Origin: a virus
Lineage: Duplodnaviria > Heunggongvirae > Uroviricota > Caudoviricetes
Virus record (IMG/VR): IMGVR_UViG_2744054675_000007
Location: 1-32,492 of that record
Length of the DNA stretch: 32,492 nt
Direction: 5' to 3' (one strand)
Part shown: piece by piece, positions 1,369 through 22,300 of the stretch
How positions within the stretch are numbered: the stretch's first letter is position 1
How the letters are laid out: each line of letters begins with the position of its first letter
Made by a program: the position numbers and the translations under genes
The notes under the pieces: model-generated
What the model saw: the letters and a program-made list of their open reading frames with translations, nothing else
Told to the model about the DNA's origin: nothing
Databases searched by the model: none

Positions 1369-1444
1369 GCCGATATAGCTCAGTTGGTAGAGCAGCGCAT
1401 TCGTAATGCGAAGGTCGTAGGTTCGACTCCTATTATCGGCACCA
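1369..1444 (+). tRNA. thrW: tRNA-Thr, anticodon CGT (thrW-type); its 3' end is the likely prophage attachment core
   Basis: 76 nt GCCGATATAGCTCAGTTGGTAGAGCAGCGCATTCGTAATGCGAAGGTCGTAGGTTCGACTCCTATTATCGGCACCA; folds as a cloverleaf with anticodon loop TTCGTAA and a 3' CCA. Confidence 0.85.
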
Positions 1445-13059: not shown

Positions 13060-14432
13060 GACAGGATATCGAAGCGAGCGTTATCGGTGGCCTGCTGATT
13101 GGTGGATTAACTCCAACCGCCAGTGACGTTCTGGCAACGCTGGAGCCGGAAGCGTTTTCAATTCCGCTCTACCGGAAAGCCTTCGAGGTTATTCGCAAGC
13201 AGGCGAGAAACAGAAACCTAATCGATGCGCTGATGGTTGCCGAGGCGTGCGGAGAGGAGCATTTCACGTCAATCCTGATGACCAGCAAAAACTGCCCGAG
13301 TGCCGCAAACCTGAAGGGATATGCCGGAATGGTCGCGGATAACTATCACCGCCGTCTGGTGCTGGAAATCATGGATGAAATGCGTGAACCAATCCAAAGC
13401 GGAACCATCGACGCATCGAGTCAGGCGATGGATGAACTTGTAAAGCGTCTTTCAGCCATCAGAAAGCCCCGTGACGAGGTTAAACCTGTACGGTTAGGGG
13501 AAATCATCACTGACTACACTGACACGCTTGACAGGCGTCTGAGGAACGGAGAAGAGTCAGATACCCTGAAGACCGGAATCGACGAACTTGACGCCATCAC
13601 CGGAGGGATGAACGCGGAAGACCTTGTGATAATCGCCGCTCGTCCTGGTATGGGGAAAACCGAACTGGCGCTGAAGATTGCCGAAGGCGTTGCAAGCCGC
13701 GTTATTCCTGGTTCTGACGTCCGGCGCGGGGTATTGATTTTCTCAATGGAAATGAGCGCATTGCAGATTGCAGAGCGAAGCATTGCCAACGCCGGGAGGA
13801 TGTCGGTTAGCGTACTGCGAAATCCTGCATCGATGGATGACGAAGGCTGGGCGCGTGTTGCTAACGGCATGAGTCAGCTTGCAGATTTGGATGTATGGGT
13901 AGTCGATGCCTCGCGGTTATCGGTCGAAGAAATTCGCTCAATCGCAGAGCGGCACAAACAGGAAAATCCAAACCTGTCACTCATCATGGCGGATTATCTT
14001 GGCCTGATTGAGAAGCCGAAAGCAGACCGCAACGACCTCGCAATTGCTCACATCTCCGGAAGCCTGAAGGCGATGGCGAAAGACCTGAAAACGCCTGTTA
14101 TCTCCCTGAGTCAGCTTTCGCGCGATGTTGAGAAGCGACCAAACAAACGCCCGACAAACGCAGATTTGCGTGATTCAGGAAGCATTGAACAGGACGCAGA
14201 CTCAATCATCATGCTCTATCGGGAAGCGGTATATGACGAGAACAGTAGCGCCGCGCCATTTGCTGAAATCATCGTGACGAAAAACCGTTTTGGCTCACTT
14301 GGTACGGTTTACCAGCGGTTCTGCAACGGACACTTTGTTGCATGTGATCAGGATGAAGCCAGACAGATTTGCACAGCATCAAATGCACCTGCTGCGCGTG
14401 GCAGACGATATGCACAAGGGGCGGACGTATGA
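13056..14432 (+). CDS. DnaB-like replicative DNA helicase
   Basis: 458 aa; DnaB N-terminal domain and Walker A GMGKT in a RecA-like C-terminal domain; position after the O-like gene. Confidence 0.9.
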
Positions 14433-17898: not shown

Positions 17899-17973
17899 GG
17901 GTCAGTCGTATAAAGGTCATTACGGAAGGCTGTTAACCTTCTTATCGTGGTTCGAGTCCACGCTGTCCCGCCA
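17899..17973 (+). tRNA. phage-encoded tRNA-like gene, anticodon GTT (Asn)
   Basis: 75 nt hand-folded cloverleaf: acceptor GGGTCAG/CTGTCCC (one T-T mismatch), anticodon stem GAAGG/CCTTC with loop CTGTTAA, canonical T-arm CGTGG-TTCGAGT-CCACG, 3' GCCA. Confidence 0.45.
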
Positions 17974-17978
17974 AACAT

Positions 17979-18054
17979 GCTGATTTAGCTCCAATGGTAG
18001 AGCAGTCGCCTTGTAAGCGAATGGGTAGCGGGTCAAGTCCGTTAACCAGCACCA
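17979..18054 (+). tRNA. phage-encoded tRNA-like gene, anticodon TGT (Thr)
   Basis: 76 nt hand-folded cloverleaf: acceptor GCTGATT/AACCAGC (one mismatch), D-arm GCTC-CAATGGTA-GAGC, anticodon loop CTTGTAA, T-arm AGCGG-GTCAAGT-CCGTT, 3' ACCA. Confidence 0.45.
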
Positions 18055-18298: not shown

Positions 18299-18502
18299 AT
18301 GTACCGTATGGACAAAATCAGAGAATGGTTCAGTTACAGCTTCGGAGGACTGACTGCGATGGGTGGCATTCTCTCCCTGAATGACTGGGCTGTCATCATT
18401 GGTATTCTTTGTACTGTCGGCACATTTGGCGTCAACTGGTACTACAAGCGCAAAGAGCGCGAGGACAGATTGAATGGCAATGTCACCGGCACTACGAAAT
18501 AG
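18299..18502 (+). CDS. holin, probably pinholin type with dual-start motif
   Basis: 67 aa; MYRMDK dual-start-like N-terminus, two hydrophobic segments, charged C-terminus; immediately precedes and overlaps the SAR endolysin. Confidence 0.7.
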
Positions 18503-18977
18503 CGTAATAGCGGCGATAAGTGGCGGGGCTATTGCTATAGCATCTGTGTTAATCACTGGACCAAGTGGTAACGATGGTCTGGAAGGTGTCAGCTACATGC
18601 CATACAAAGATATTGTTGGTGTATGGACTGTATGTCACGGACACACCGGGAAAGACATCATGCTCGGTAAAACGTATACCGAAGCAGAATGCAAAGCCCT
18701 CCTGAATAAAGACCTTGCCACGGTCGCCAGACAAATTAACCCGTACATCAAAGTCGATATACCGGAAACAACGCGCGGCGCTCTTTATTCGTTCGTCTAT
18801 AACGTGGGCGCAGGCAATTTCAGAACATCGACGCTTCTTCGCAAAATCAACCAGGGCGATATCAAGGGTGCATGTGACCAGCTACGTCGCTGGACATACG
18901 CTGGCGGTAAGCAATGGAAAGGGCTGATGACTCGCCGTGAGATTGAGCGTGAAGTCTGTTTGTGGGGGCAGCAATGA
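18474..18977 (+). CDS. SAR endolysin (lysozyme with N-terminal signal-arrest-release domain)
   Basis: 167 aa; weakly hydrophobic Gly/Ala-rich N-terminal segment ([19 protein letters not shown]) followed by a lysozyme-like domain. Confidence 0.8.
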
Positions 18978-19411
18978 GCAGAGTAACCGCGATTATCTCT
19001 GCTCTGGTTATCTGCATCATCGTCTGTCTGTCATGGGCTGTTAATCATTACCGTGATAACGCCATCGCCTACAAAGAGCAGCGCGATAAGGCCGCATCCA
19101 TCATCGCTGACATGCAGAAGCGTCAACGTGATGTAGCAGAACTCGACGCCAGATATACAAAGGAGCTTGCTGATGCTAACGCGACTATCGAAAGTCTCCG
19201 TGCTGATGTTTCTGCTGGGCGTAAGCGCCTGCAAGTCGCCGCCACCTGTGCAAAGTCAACGACCGGAGCCAGCAGCATGGGCGATGGAGAAAGCCCAAGA
19301 CTTACAGCAGATGCTGAACTCAATTATTACCGTCTCAGAAGTGGAATCGACAGGATAACCGCGCAGGTTAACTACCTGCAGGAATACATCAGGACGCAAT
19401 GCCTTCGATGA
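18974..19411 (+). CDS. Rz-like i-spanin
   Basis: ATGA overlap with the endolysin stop; N-terminal TM segment then coiled-coil periplasmic region; contains an embedded +1 frame lipoprotein ORF. Confidence 0.75.
19173..19358 (+). CDS. Rz1-like o-spanin (lipoprotein) embedded in Rz
   Basis: AGGAG RBS, ATG at 19173; signal peptide with lipobox VSAC and Pro-rich mature region ([13 protein letters not shown]), fully inside Rz in another frame. Confidence 0.6.
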
Positions 19412-19632
19412 TAGCGATAATTTTACTCATCATCCTTCACATCTGGCTCTGTAGACAGGGTGGTGATCACTTCTGGAGTAAATCCAGATTAAACATCTCA
19501 TTGCTGATGCTTGATATTGAGCATCTGGCGCGCGGTAAGGGGCTGCGTTGAGATAAGAGCCAGTCATTACAAACACCAGGATTTAGCCTCGCATTCGCGG
19601 GGTTTTTTATTCCCAACTCCATAGGTAATTTT

Positions 19633-20112
19633 ATGACCCAGCATATTGGCGTAAAACTGATTAACGCCTTTCCGATGACGAGACAGGCATATAACGATTT
19701 TCGTGGCTGGCAGCTTCCTGCCGGAGAAAACGGCGAGGACGAAGGCTATCTGGTTGAATATCTGGATGGCGGAAAACCTAACACCGATCGCTTTGATGGC
19801 TACGTTAGCTGGAGTCCAAAAGAAGTATTCGAAAAGGCTTATCGTCCTGTATCAGGGCTAAGTTTCGGCCTTGCCATGGAGGCGTTAAAACAGGGCAAGA
19901 GTTTGCAGCGGGCAGGATGGAATGGGAAAGACCAGTTTGTTTATCTCGTTAAAGGGGAAAAATTAGCGTCTGCGTTGGGTTATGGCTTTGGCGAATATGT
20001 TGGCGAGCCAACTTTCAATGACACGCTTGTATTGAAAAACTCACAGAACCGCCTTGCTACGTGGGTTCCATCCATTGGCGACCTGATGGCTGAAGACTGG
20101 CAAATCATTTAA
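19633..20112 (+). CDS. hypothetical protein with DUF2829-like (Tad2-like) C-terminal domain
   Basis: 159 aa; C-terminal half carries EALKQGKSLQRAGWNGK...FVYLV...WVPSIGDLMAEDWQII, which matches my recollection of the DUF2829 signature; N-terminal half has a weaker similar pattern. Confidence 0.5.
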   Translation: MTQHIGVKLINAFPMTRQAYNDFRGWQLPAGENGEDEGYLVEYLDGGKPNTDRFDGYVSWSPKEVFEKAYRPVSGLSFGLAMEALKQGKSLQRAGWNGKDQFVYLVKGEKLASALGYGFGEYVGEPTFNDTLVLKNSQNRLATWVPSIGDLMAEDWQII

Positions 20113-20407
20113 CCATGTAGGCATTACAAAGCACATCTACGGGTGGGCTTGATAATGAAACCGGAGTTAATTTCTGGTCACCAATTAACGGCAGTACAGC
20201 GAAACAACCCAAGCCAGTAAGTGGGGAAATAACACTGGCAGCCACTGAAAGATGAACCTCCTGCCTTATGGCAAAAAAGATTCTTTGTGGTGGCGGACTG
20301 ATGGAAAGACATCGGATAGAATAAAACAGTGGCTAGGGTAGCTCCCGAAAAGCGGAATCGTCACCGCCAGCCACTGAATCTATGACGAACAACTAGACGA
20401 GGTTGAT

Positions 20408-20650
20408 ATGAGTGAAATTGATAAAATAATAAATGGTACATGTAACTTTCAATCAATGCCGCCAGGTAGTTATGTAAAACAATGTAGTGAAATAGTTAAT
20501 GGTCAGCTTGTAATGTCAAATGCAGGACGCGGAGTTTCTGCGGATGAAAAAAAATCAATAAATGAAGCCCTGTTAAGCATCAATGTTTTTGACTTGTTTC
20601 GCCCATCTTGGGTTATCTTGCAAAATAGTAACCAATTCCCACATTATTGA
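20408..20650 (+). CDS. hypothetical protein, 80 aa, encoded in a visibly AT-rich segment
   Basis: GAGG RBS before ATG; composition clearly more AT-rich than the flanking phage genes. Confidence 0.5.
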   Translation: MSEIDKIINGTCNFQSMPPGSYVKQCSEIVNGQLVMSNAGRGVSADEKKSINEALLSINVFDLFRPSWVILQNSNQFPHY

Positions 20651-20796
20651 TAATTAATTATTAAATTGGTCGCTAAGTCGGCCTTTTTTATTGCCATCAC
20701 AAAAGCCATTCCCTACAGAGTGGCTTTGATAATGGCTTATACCCTACACGGGATAACTTAACTGATATCCCTTTTAACGGATAAACGGAGCCAACA

Positions 20797-21039
20797 ATGG
20801 CAGAGATTATTCCCATGACTGAAGAACAGAAATTCCAGTTAGAGATTTACAAACTGGTCATGAATCAGAACGCAGCCGCAGAAGAAGCATTTCAATTCAT
20901 TGGCACTGACGAGCTGAAGCTTGAGCTATTCAAAATTCACTTCCAGTCAGGCGGCGCTAATTCAGATATCACGATCCGCACATTCGAAGCGGTGCGTAAA
21001 TCGAAGGAAGCGTTAGACCTGTTCACTACCGGAGCATGA
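20797..21039 (+). CDS. hypothetical protein, 80 aa (first of a tandem pair)
   Basis: AACGGAG RBS before ATG; stop separated by 1 nt from the start of the next gene. Confidence 0.55.
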   Translation: MAEIIPMTEEQKFQLEIYKLVMNQNAAAEEAFQFIGTDELKLELFKIHFQSGGANSDITIRTFEAVRKSKEALDLFTTGA

Positions 21040-21232: not shown

Positions 21233-21279
21233 GATGAATATGGCAGCACTCAACATGCTGCCTTTTATCGTTGATTAGT

Positions 21280-21519
21280 TTAACCGTGAGCTTCACGACC
21301 GTTTTCGTCTTCAGGCACACGGAAACGCCAGTACTTATCTGGCTTAACCCAAACAACACTTTCACCGCTATCAACCCTGAATTTATTAATCACTTTTGTT
21401 GATAGCGCTTGGTTGCCATCCGCATTTTCTTTGAGGTGCTGCTCGTTATGTTGTTTAACGAGATAACCCACAACATCCTGCTGATAAAGGCAACCCTCTG
21501 TTGATAAAACGGACATCAT
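21280..21519 (-). CDS. hypothetical protein, 79 aa
   Basis: Minus-strand ORF downstream of the YodC-like gene, opposite to the surrounding late genes; no clear RBS. Confidence 0.4.
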   Translation of the reverse strand: MMSVLSTEGCLYQQDVVGYLVKQHNEQHLKENADGNQALSTKVINKFRVDSGESVVWVKPDKYWRFRVPEDENGREAHG

Positions 21520-21563
21520 CCATGATGAAATATCATCAAGAGTTAAGGTTGGTGTGTTTGGGG

Positions 21564-21746
21564 CTATGGCTTTGGGGTAACGCGCTCAAGAGATTCCGGT
21601 CTGAAATATCCTTGCTCAAGCTTCTTGCCGGCAAACCATTGACAAAGAAAAGAGTTACCTTGGGTAGATGAAAATAACCTGATAGTCATGTCAGGTCCGC
21701 CTGATTTCAGTTTAACAATGTCACCTGTTTTAAACTCATCATTCAT
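21564..21746 (-). CDS. YodC/DUF2158-like small protein, 60 aa
   Basis: AAGGAG RBS 6 nt before ATG at 21746; FKTGDIVKLKSGGPDMTI motif as in the YodC family from memory. Confidence 0.55.
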   Translation of the reverse strand: MNDEFKTGDIVKLKSGGPDMTIRLFSSTQGNSFLCQWFAGKKLEQGYFRPESLERVTPKP

Positions 21747-21772
21747 AACAATCTCCTTATTGGAAGTAAAAA

Positions 21773-22300
21773 ATGGCACTCACCGACAAACAAGAAATGT
21801 TCTGTCGCGAGTACCTCATCGATTTAAACGCCACGCAAGCGGCTATTCGGGCGGGGTACAGCGCAAAGACAGCCAACCGTACTGCGTCCGAAAACATGTC
21901 AAAACCTGACATACAATTCAGAATCTCCGAATTGAAAGCACAACGCAATGACTCTGTTGGAATAAATGCAGAATACGTACTTAATCGCCTTATTGAAATC
22001 GACCAGATGGATGTGCTCGACATTCTCCTGCAAAACGGTGAGCTAAAACCCATTAAAGACTGGCCTAAGGTATGGCGCACAACGCTATCAGGAATGGATG
22101 TCGTGGAGATGGTATCTGCAGATAGCACCGCACTTCTGAAGAAAATCAAATGGCCTGATAAGGTCAAAAATCTCGAACTTCTTGGTAAGCATGTTTCCGT
22201 TCAGGCGTTTAAAGAACAAGCTTCTCACGAGCTAACCGGCAAAGACGGCGGCGCAATCCAGATTGAAACATCACCAATGAGCACTTTATTCGGAAAATGA
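21773..22300 (+). CDS. terminase small subunit
   Basis: 175 aa; N-terminal MALTDKQEMFCREYLIDLNATQAAIRAGYS HTH typical of small terminases; immediately precedes and overlaps the large terminase. Confidence 0.8.
   Translation: MALTDKQEMFCREYLIDLNATQAAIRAGYSAKTANRTASENMSKPDIQFRISELKAQRNDSVGINAEYVLNRLIEIDQMDVLDILLQNGELKPIKDWPKVWRTTLSGMDVVEMVSADSTALLKKIKWPDKVKNLELLGKHVSVQAFKEQASHELTGKDGGAIQIETSPMSTLFGK

Follow-up and report, generated by a model that had tools for sequence, protein, structure and literature searches.

The window, as we call the 32,492-nt stretch of DNA that we analysed, is a lambdoid, P22-like prophage. Between its lysis and packaging genes lies a gene array of the exchangeable accessory type: tRNA genes are followed by the lysis genes, a 50-codon ORF, a Tad2-like gene, the cassette region that concerns us here, a DUF2560 gene, and a 63-codon ORF, and then by two genes on the minus strand and the genes for the small and large subunits of terminase, which start at 21773 (see the table). 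The same gene order is found in annotated E. coli prophages, Sf6, HK97, P22, and others, and the whole region is 93-98% identical among the phages that share the locus. A search for the locus in genome contigs from a wider range of species returned 7 loci, nearly all of them identical. Another tRNA gene, tRNA-Thr(CGU), lies near the start of the window (1369-1444) and may be the attachment site of the prophage.

Features of the cassette region and the flanking genes (positions in the window)
Feature	Position	Strand	Evidence or remark
tRNA-Asn and tRNA-Thr(UGU) genes	17899-18054		just upstream of the holin gene
Holin, lysozyme, and Rz genes	18299-19411		
Half copy of a hairpin 5' arm, CATTACAAA	19565-19573	+	left joint of the Tad2-like cassette
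DUF2829 / Tad2-like accessory gene	19633-20112	+	Pfam PF11195, E = 6.4e-22
Backbone hairpin of class C, holding motif copy 1	20122-20157	+	-13.3 kcal/mol, z = -3.4
Variable spacer from hairpin C to the core	20158-20187	+	three alternative versions among phages
Conserved non-coding core, 126 nt	20188-20313	+	cassettes always inserted right after the terminal GACATC
Moron cassette (leader, ORF80, and terminator), ~380 nt	about 20314-20694	+	alignment with empty, Gp49, and Q-holin-site loci
Candidate -10 element, TAGAAT	20317-20322	+	-35-like CGGACT at 20294-20299, 17-nt spacer
Three-stem leader RNA, Rfam RF02996 (int-alpA)	20326-20388	+	42 bits, E = 1.3e-5
Shine-Dalgarno sequence GAGG, part of the portable leader	20399-20402	+	5 nt before the ATG
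ORF80, gene for an AT-rich orphan protein, 80 codons	20408-20650	+	A8 run at 20546-20553
Predicted intrinsic terminator of the cassette, stem GGUCG/CGGCC then U6	20668-20689	+	terminator scan
Backbone hairpin of class B, holding motif copy 2	20693-20736	+	-21.1 kcal/mol, z = -5.6
Small hairpin of the DUF2560 leader, UUAUaCCC-UACAC-GGGAUAA (the so-called third copy)	20737-20756	+	-4.7 kcal/mol, z = -1.6
DUF2560 gene, homologue of P22 orf80, backbone	20797-21039	+	Pfam PF10834, E = 2.6e-42; P22 annotation

The Tad2-like gene, whose Pfam match covers residues 77-159, is a candidate for a Thoeris anti-defence sponge. It is itself a cassette: it is bracketed by a direct repeat, CATTACAAA (19565-19573 and 20122-20130), and HK97, Sf6, P22, and BIS08P22 have other genes in its place. 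In Sf6, the gene upstream of the position of this cassette runs directly into a full hairpin. A terminator (19585-19604) precedes the Tad2-like gene. On the other side of the cassette region, the two minus-strand genes (21280-21779, opposite to the late operon) encode DUF6953 and DUF2158 proteins; the pair begins just past a terminator (21242-21262), abuts the start of terS, and looks like a second moron with the orientation of the P22 moron pid.

ORF80 has the lowest G+C content in the window, at 34.6% (24.7% at third codon positions) versus 48.3% for the window and 45-52% for the neighbouring genes. An earlier note on this DNA had described the gene as visibly more AT-rich than its neighbours. 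Windowed G+C bears this out, as ORF80 falls outside the range of the flanking genes and into the lowest 0.1% of all 243-nt windows. The protein is rare (only six clusters among 5.8 billion proteins) and has no match in Pfam, PHROG, PADLOC, or the PDB; its AlphaFold model consists of three helices at low confidence (pLDDT 64) and has no significant fold match in BFVD. Purifying selection acts on ORF80: dN/dS is 0.17-0.21 against homologues that are 73-75% identical. One homologue (P0003, 73% identity) sits at another hotspot, between the genes for the Q antiterminator and the holin, and most of our 1.7-kb query region is present in only 1 of 5426 complete E. coli genomes. Truncated versions with 52 codons are common in E. 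coli (P0005, P0006; L209 1095-1253). These are consistent with a slippage frameshift in the A8 run at 20546-20553 and could represent either decay or phase variation.

The limits of the insert are clear from a three-way alignment of E. coli strains with the same insert, with a Gp49 gene, or with no insert: the left joint lies directly after GACATC (20313) and the right joint is the 5' base of hairpin B. Because the homologue at the Q-holin site has the same type of leader and the same terminator (through TTTTTTATTGC) with no hairpin, the mobile unit runs from ~20314 to 20694 and excludes the hairpins. Within this unit the order of parts is the -10-like TAGAAT, the 63-nt leader, the Shine-Dalgarno sequence, ORF80, and the intrinsic terminator, which is conserved in the homologues, with a better stem there. 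We examined what follows the end of the core at 127 loci that were anchored on the hairpin. About 57 are empty, 13 have a Gp49 cassette, 10 have a cassette with a tiny ORF, 4 have another type, and 3 have a type that is led by an int-alpA element. Thus, one joint is either empty or holds the Gp49 cassette or one of three other types. On the strength of this variable insert, of its deviant base composition, and of what is predicted to be a terminator of its own (a stem and U6), we class the cassette as a classic moron whose coding part is the AT-rich gene. Its site is a known hotspot: the region between the lysis and packaging genes, where lambdoid late operons vary and where pid also resides in P22. 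The presence of other inserts or none at this site, and of a homologue at a second hotspot, together with the rarity of the protein and of the query region, agrees with the proposal in the earlier note that the gene is separately acquired cargo. One of the other cassette types, found in L016 (about 13075-13240) and at 12 other loci at the same joint, contains only a 23-codon ORF (MSAEGFNNPSKFRDEWDSSVKSK) with a strong Shine-Dalgarno sequence (GAAGGAG), which ends 3 nt before hairpin B.

Upstream of ORF80, the earlier note had seen a stretch (20113-20407) without any ORF that has a ribosome binding site and had suggested that it could carry a small RNA. We likewise found no ORF preceded by a Shine-Dalgarno sequence there, and the stretch does contain a structured RNA element, a full-length match to the int-alpA model of Rfam. 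The leader scores 42.0 bits against a gathering score of 35.8, which the leaders in phage BIS08P22 (L005) and in L131 also pass. Our covariation sample comprised seven variants, three of which have largely different stem sequences, and all three stems are kept. Overall, 91.4% of cells are paired and 8 of 15 pairs are changed on both sides, with covariation in each of the three stems; when partners were slid as a control, 28-52% of cells were paired and 0-1 pairs covaried. The single-stranded segments CUAG, CGAAAAG, and AUCGUCA are nearly invariant, as is a segment just downstream of the leader, GACGARCAACUAGRCGAGGKUG, which includes the Shine-Dalgarno sequence. At least four unrelated ORFs, distributed over two hotspots, have this leader in front of them (ORF80, an 89-codon ORF, a DUF551 gene, and a 91-codon ORF), and 57 of 5426 complete E. 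coli genomes contain it, behaviour that fits a portable module for expression.

The family name int-alpA presumably implies a location near integrase or alpA genes. The leader instead lies in the late operon, upstream of orphan ORFs and away from any integrase or alpA neighbourhood, and the intA-alpA region of E. coli K-12 (CP4-57) gave no match to it. With the int-alpA RNA motif of Weinberg and colleagues (2017, PMC5737381), the leader shares the three-stem junction, the conserved CUAG and CGAAAAG, and the bases of the P3 loop, but it lacks the U-tract that follows P1 in the int-alpA consensus, and its context is small orphan genes at two lambdoid moron hotspots. The match to RF02996 names the element and does not explain it. 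In L129, a related prophage, there is a match to another Rfam family, isrJ (44 bits; gathering score 37), immediately past the Q gene (323-401).

The earlier note had also described a motif of roughly 20 nt, CTAC...GATAAT, that recurs three times upstream of the genes of the island. Copies 1 and 2 are homologous; the third shares only CCCTACA and GATAA with the others, which is no more than a loose resemblance. The first copy lies where it was reported, at 20137-20157, and the second and third lie at 20713-20734 and 20742-20757, one base to the right of the reported positions. Copies 1 and 2 belong to longer homologous units (20122-20157 and 20695-20734) with 31 identical bases; the units align with a score of 17, whereas none of 4602 other windows scores above 6 (z = 6.9). 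The motif is conserved in related phages: we found the homologous units in over 100 phage contigs, so the similarity of the two copies is far beyond chance. That the motif lies upstream of island genes is true only loosely. Copy 2 abuts the right end of the cassette and precedes the backbone DUF2560 gene, while copy 1 is remote from the cassette, 157 nt upstream of its left end, with the conserved core in between.

Both units fold into imperfect hairpins of ~40 nt, and the motif corresponds to the loop and the 3' arm. Hairpin C has an outer stem (CAUUA/UAAUG), a CA/GA internal loop, and an inner stem (AAGCaCA/UGGGCUU). Hairpin B has an outer stem (GCCAU/AUGGC), an internal loop, a 10-bp inner stem, and the loop CCUACA, and reads GCCAU-CACA-AAAGCCAUUC-ccuaca-GAGUGGCUUU-GAUA-AUGGC. 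We anchored 128 phage loci on the conserved DUF2560 leader and read the position just upstream, which is occupied by four classes of sequence. Class A is found at "empty" sites (for example TTATTGCAGAGGCCATTCAATGAGTGGTCTCGACAATGG); class B, which includes copy 2 of the window, accompanies the ORF80 and Gp49 cassettes and others; class C, represented in the window by copy 1, is at these loci joined directly to the DUF2560 leader; and class D occurs in L129. All of the hairpin variants that we tested (14/14, from all four classes) fold alike, with z from -3.7 to -8.5. In the shape that they share, 5-7 bp make up the outer stem and 9-10 bp the inner stem, the loop has 3-6 nt, and in most variants the internal loop is a 2x2 CA/GA. 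In an alignment of 45 columns, 96.6% of cells are paired, a percentage that is inflated because we set the limits of the alignment by hand and took the structure from the sequences in it; controls with slid partners gave 30-50%. Eight of the 17 pairs are changed on both sides.

Several features bear on the strand and the molecule in which the hairpins might act. U.G is found at pair 18-29 in 11 of the 14 sequences, and polymorphisms within the classes change G.U to G-C or A-U and so keep the pairing. The common loop of class C, cUACGg, is a UNCG-type tetraloop, and tetraloops of this type are especially stable in RNA. For hairpins of classes A and C, the fold of the plus strand, which is the strand of the late operon, is favoured by 4-11 kcal/mol over that of the minus strand. 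The compensatory changes, the conserved G.U pair, the stability of the plus strand, and the cUACGg loop together favour a role in RNA on the plus strand. Class B hairpins are equally stable on either strand, which leaves room for a role at the level of DNA. The geometry, about two helical turns with an internal loop, is that of an RNase III substrate, a likeness of geometry only. We rejected the idea that the hairpins are intrinsic terminators on either strand: they are followed by GAUAAUG or GGCUUAUACC with no U-tract, and a terminator scan did not flag them. A search of Rfam found no known RNA family for the hairpins or for the core at E < 1, and the papers that we read contain no description of these hairpins in P22-like phages.

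Just beyond hairpin B, the leader of the DUF2560 gene has a diversity of 0.008, the lowest of the stretches that we measured. This leader (20737-20796) can form three mutually exclusive hairpins (UUAUaCCC/GGGAUAA, GGGAUA/UAUCCC, and UAUCC/GGAUA). The alternative hairpins along with the low diversity suggest that it is a regulatory switch.

The hairpins also mark mosaic joints in the backbone. Among 208 loci, we counted at least 12 unrelated sequences directly upstream of hairpin C, each of which ends exactly at the 5' base of the hairpin, often with a stop codon 1-14 nt before it. Only two main sequences follow hairpin C, namely the segment that leads to the core or the DUF2560 leader. The full hairpin occurs just twice in the 32.5-kb window, and both motif and hairpins are absent where the homologue of ORF80 sits at the Q-holin site. 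By these comparisons, the hairpins are part of the recipient backbone and do not travel with the ORF80 cassette.

On balance we think it probable, with the functions being our inference, that a moron cassette has been placed between a conserved core and a backbone hairpin, and that the motif is a part of that hairpin and not a promoter. The cassette would have been inserted immediately after the 126-nt core and immediately before hairpin B. The hairpins most likely act in late RNA and also serve as homology for the exchange of cassettes. In the late polycistronic RNA they would be processing or stability elements, as their RNase III-like geometry suggests; and because they place 36-44 nt of conserved sequence at the edges of cassettes, they could double as homology patches through which phage recombinases swap cassettes. 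The leader would be a portable cis-acting module for the expression of small cargo genes. In a lysogen, the cassette might be weakly transcribed from a promoter of its own, with transcription stopping at its own terminator.

The hairpins might instead be DNA-level recombination sites of a dedicated cassette system, similar to the attC sites of integrons or to PeSLs of the T4 type, that fold in single-stranded DNA or act as crossover points, with the core as the common insertion site. Cassettes always enter at a single point after the core and end at the hairpin, mosaic joints coincide with the edges of the hairpins, and the Tad2-like cassette is bracketed by its CATTACAAA repeat; furthermore, in some phages hairpin C is fused to the DUF2560 leader as if the DNA between two hairpins had been deleted, and the PeSLs are a precedent (PMC2839356, PMC4122927). 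However, no dedicated recombinase is evident in the cassette region, the left joints of the cassettes are not hairpins, and the pid moron enters P22 a few bases past the hairpin. The conserved U.G pair and the bias towards the plus strand favour RNA over DNA-level sites, and ordinary homologous recombination by enzymes of the Red/Erf type explains the pattern without a dedicated system. We therefore consider such a system unlikely.

A similarly doubtful explanation is that the hairpins have no function and are a leftover palindromic linker, with an incidental fold, that hitch-hikes with the exchanged backbone. Given that the region is 93-98% identical among phages, recent spread does account for much of the conservation. 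But across four classes whose inner stems are unrelated in sequence, the outer stem, the internal loop, and the length and position of the inner stem are unchanged, and the polymorphisms within classes preserve pairing.

The core is nearly invariant in 79 copies from phages of E. coli, Shigella, and Salmonella, including HK97, HK022, Sf6, and P22. Its diversity is 0.023 (0.011 in the last 86 nt), versus 0.085 at the third codon positions of the DUF2560 gene, and is lower than that at the non-synonymous positions of this neighbouring gene, a contrast that the selection of loci inflates. It could be with the core that the hairpins really work, which would count against the reading that we favour. 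Within the core is AACCUCC, a complement of the Shine-Dalgarno regions downstream. We rejected an RNA fold for the core because common polymorphisms, at 20236 and 20262, disrupt the stems predicted for it. It is very unlikely that the core is a gene for a small protein, either on the plus strand from the ATG at 20252 or on the minus strand. The ATG-initiated frame MNLLPYGKKDSLWWRTDGKTS is kept in most copies, a 44-codon ORF on the minus strand (20178-20312) spans the core almost exactly, and in phage Huey a small CDS is annotated here in a different frame (MAKKILCGG..., ATG 20269). Yet the plus-strand ORF has no Shine-Dalgarno sequence, its C-terminus varies with the cassette (giving 21 to 54 aa), an indel in an A-run frameshifts it in 6 loci, and the common polymorphisms are non-synonymous in its frame; and the minus-strand ORF would start in variable cassette DNA, without conserved signals.

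Finally, the earlier note had suggested that the CTAC...GATAAT motif may be a shared promoter or binding site that frees the island genes from late antitermination. That it is such a sigma-70 promoter or operator we find hardly credible. It is true that GATAAT resembles a -10 element, that TTACAA or TCACAA loosely resembles a -35 element, and that morons of this hotspot can carry their own promoters, as pid of P22 does (PMC8835761). But the hexamers are 20 and 24 nt apart, with no -35 element at 16-18 nt, and a scan for the promoter consensus did not flag the motif. GATAAT is base-paired in the hairpin, and other classes have GACAAT or CTTAAT in its place; the inner stems have unrelated sequences and yet compensate (a poor fit to a sequence-specific site in DNA); copy 1 is 250 nt from ORF80; and the motif is absent beside the Q-holin copy of the ORF80 homologue. 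Independent expression of the cassette, if there is any, would more plausibly come from the candidate -10 element TAGAAT, which would be a weak promoter. TAGAAT matches 5 of the 6 positions of the consensus hexamer, and CGGACT, a poor -35 element that lies inside the core, matches 3 of 6; the consensus promoter scan did not flag this site. L129 carries TGATATAAT in the register of TAGAAT. Because the copies at the Q-holin site have no such element, a promoter at TAGAAT is plausible but is not a constant feature.

A more ambitious proposal, which we regard as improbable, is that the hairpins, the core, and the int-alpA-type leader together form a platform for capturing, swapping, and expressing small accessory genes. 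If so, anti-defence genes like the Tad2-like neighbour would be among its cargo, the platform would be a lambdoid counterpart of the PeSLs of T4 or of attI/attC in integrons, and the leader would be a regulatory RNA held in common with the integrative elements that carry int-alpA.

Whatever its mechanism, the locus matters because the gap between the lysis and packaging genes of lambdoid phages collects genes that manipulate the host or counter its defences, such as pid, Tad2-like genes, and Gp49. Here the grammar of this gap is displayed at base resolution, with a single insertion point, hairpins at the joints, and a reusable structured leader. With the core and the hairpins as anchors, there is a practical route to new cargo genes. 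The leader gives an orphan Rfam motif a first genomic context outside int-alpA, and the hairpins provide candidate processing signals for the late RNA of phages that can be put to the test.

How does this locus compare with known systems? The polycistronic mRNAs of phages contain intercistronic hairpins that are RNase III sites or stabilisers, for example the early sites of T7. Our hairpins are like these in geometry alone, with ~19 stacked positions and a small internal loop, between the cistrons of a long transcript. A second comparison is with the boundary or linker sequences of lambdoid phages, a concept reportedly due to Clark and colleagues in 2001. Boundary sequences are short and conserved, lie at the joints of mosaic modules, and are thought to focus homologous exchange. 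The hairpins, too, are short conserved sequences at module joints. However, the "bsq" boundary features that are annotated in the Sf6 record do not include this locus, and to our knowledge sequences of the bsq type have not been described as conserved folds with compensatory change.

In T4-type phages, PeSL (promoter-early stem-loop) cassettes join a strong sigma-70 promoter to a functional terminator (PMC2839356, PMC4122927). As with PeSLs, short conserved stem-loop motifs here flank orphan genes in hyperplastic regions, and the joints of insertions, deletions, and replacements fall at their copies. In contrast to PeSLs, the hairpins have neither a promoter consensus nor a U-tract, and hence neither the strong promoter nor the terminator stem-loop. 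As for integrons, there is no recombinase gene between 18000 and 23700.

The nearest relative in kind is pid, the ORFan moron of P22 (Cenens et al. 2013, PMC3573128; Wolput et al. 2022, PMC8835761). This moron has been studied by experiment: it is transcribed from a weak promoter, has a long 5' UTR, and needs its Rho-independent terminator for the transcript to be stable (PMC8835761). In P22 (L008, about 2255-2335), the 5' UTR region of pid is antisense to the fossil N-terminus of a Terminase_2 small subunit (TDKQEMFCHEYLIDLNATQAAIWAEI), and this fossil is nearly identical to the start of the small terminase gene at 21773 in the window. The differences from ORF80 are several. Whereas pid lies on the opposite strand, a few bases downstream of a class A hairpin and after ATGGCTTATACC, the ORF80 cassette has the orientation of the late operon and lies between the core and a hairpin. 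The two proteins are unrelated, and the 5' UTR of pid, 174 nt long, does not belong to the int-alpA type. Otherwise the likeness is close: each is a small orphan gene in the same region of the late operon, between the core or hairpin and the orf80/DUF2560 gene, and related phages have either no insert or a different insert at the site. ORF80 itself adds another orphan moron to those already known, which makes the finding more useful than surprising.
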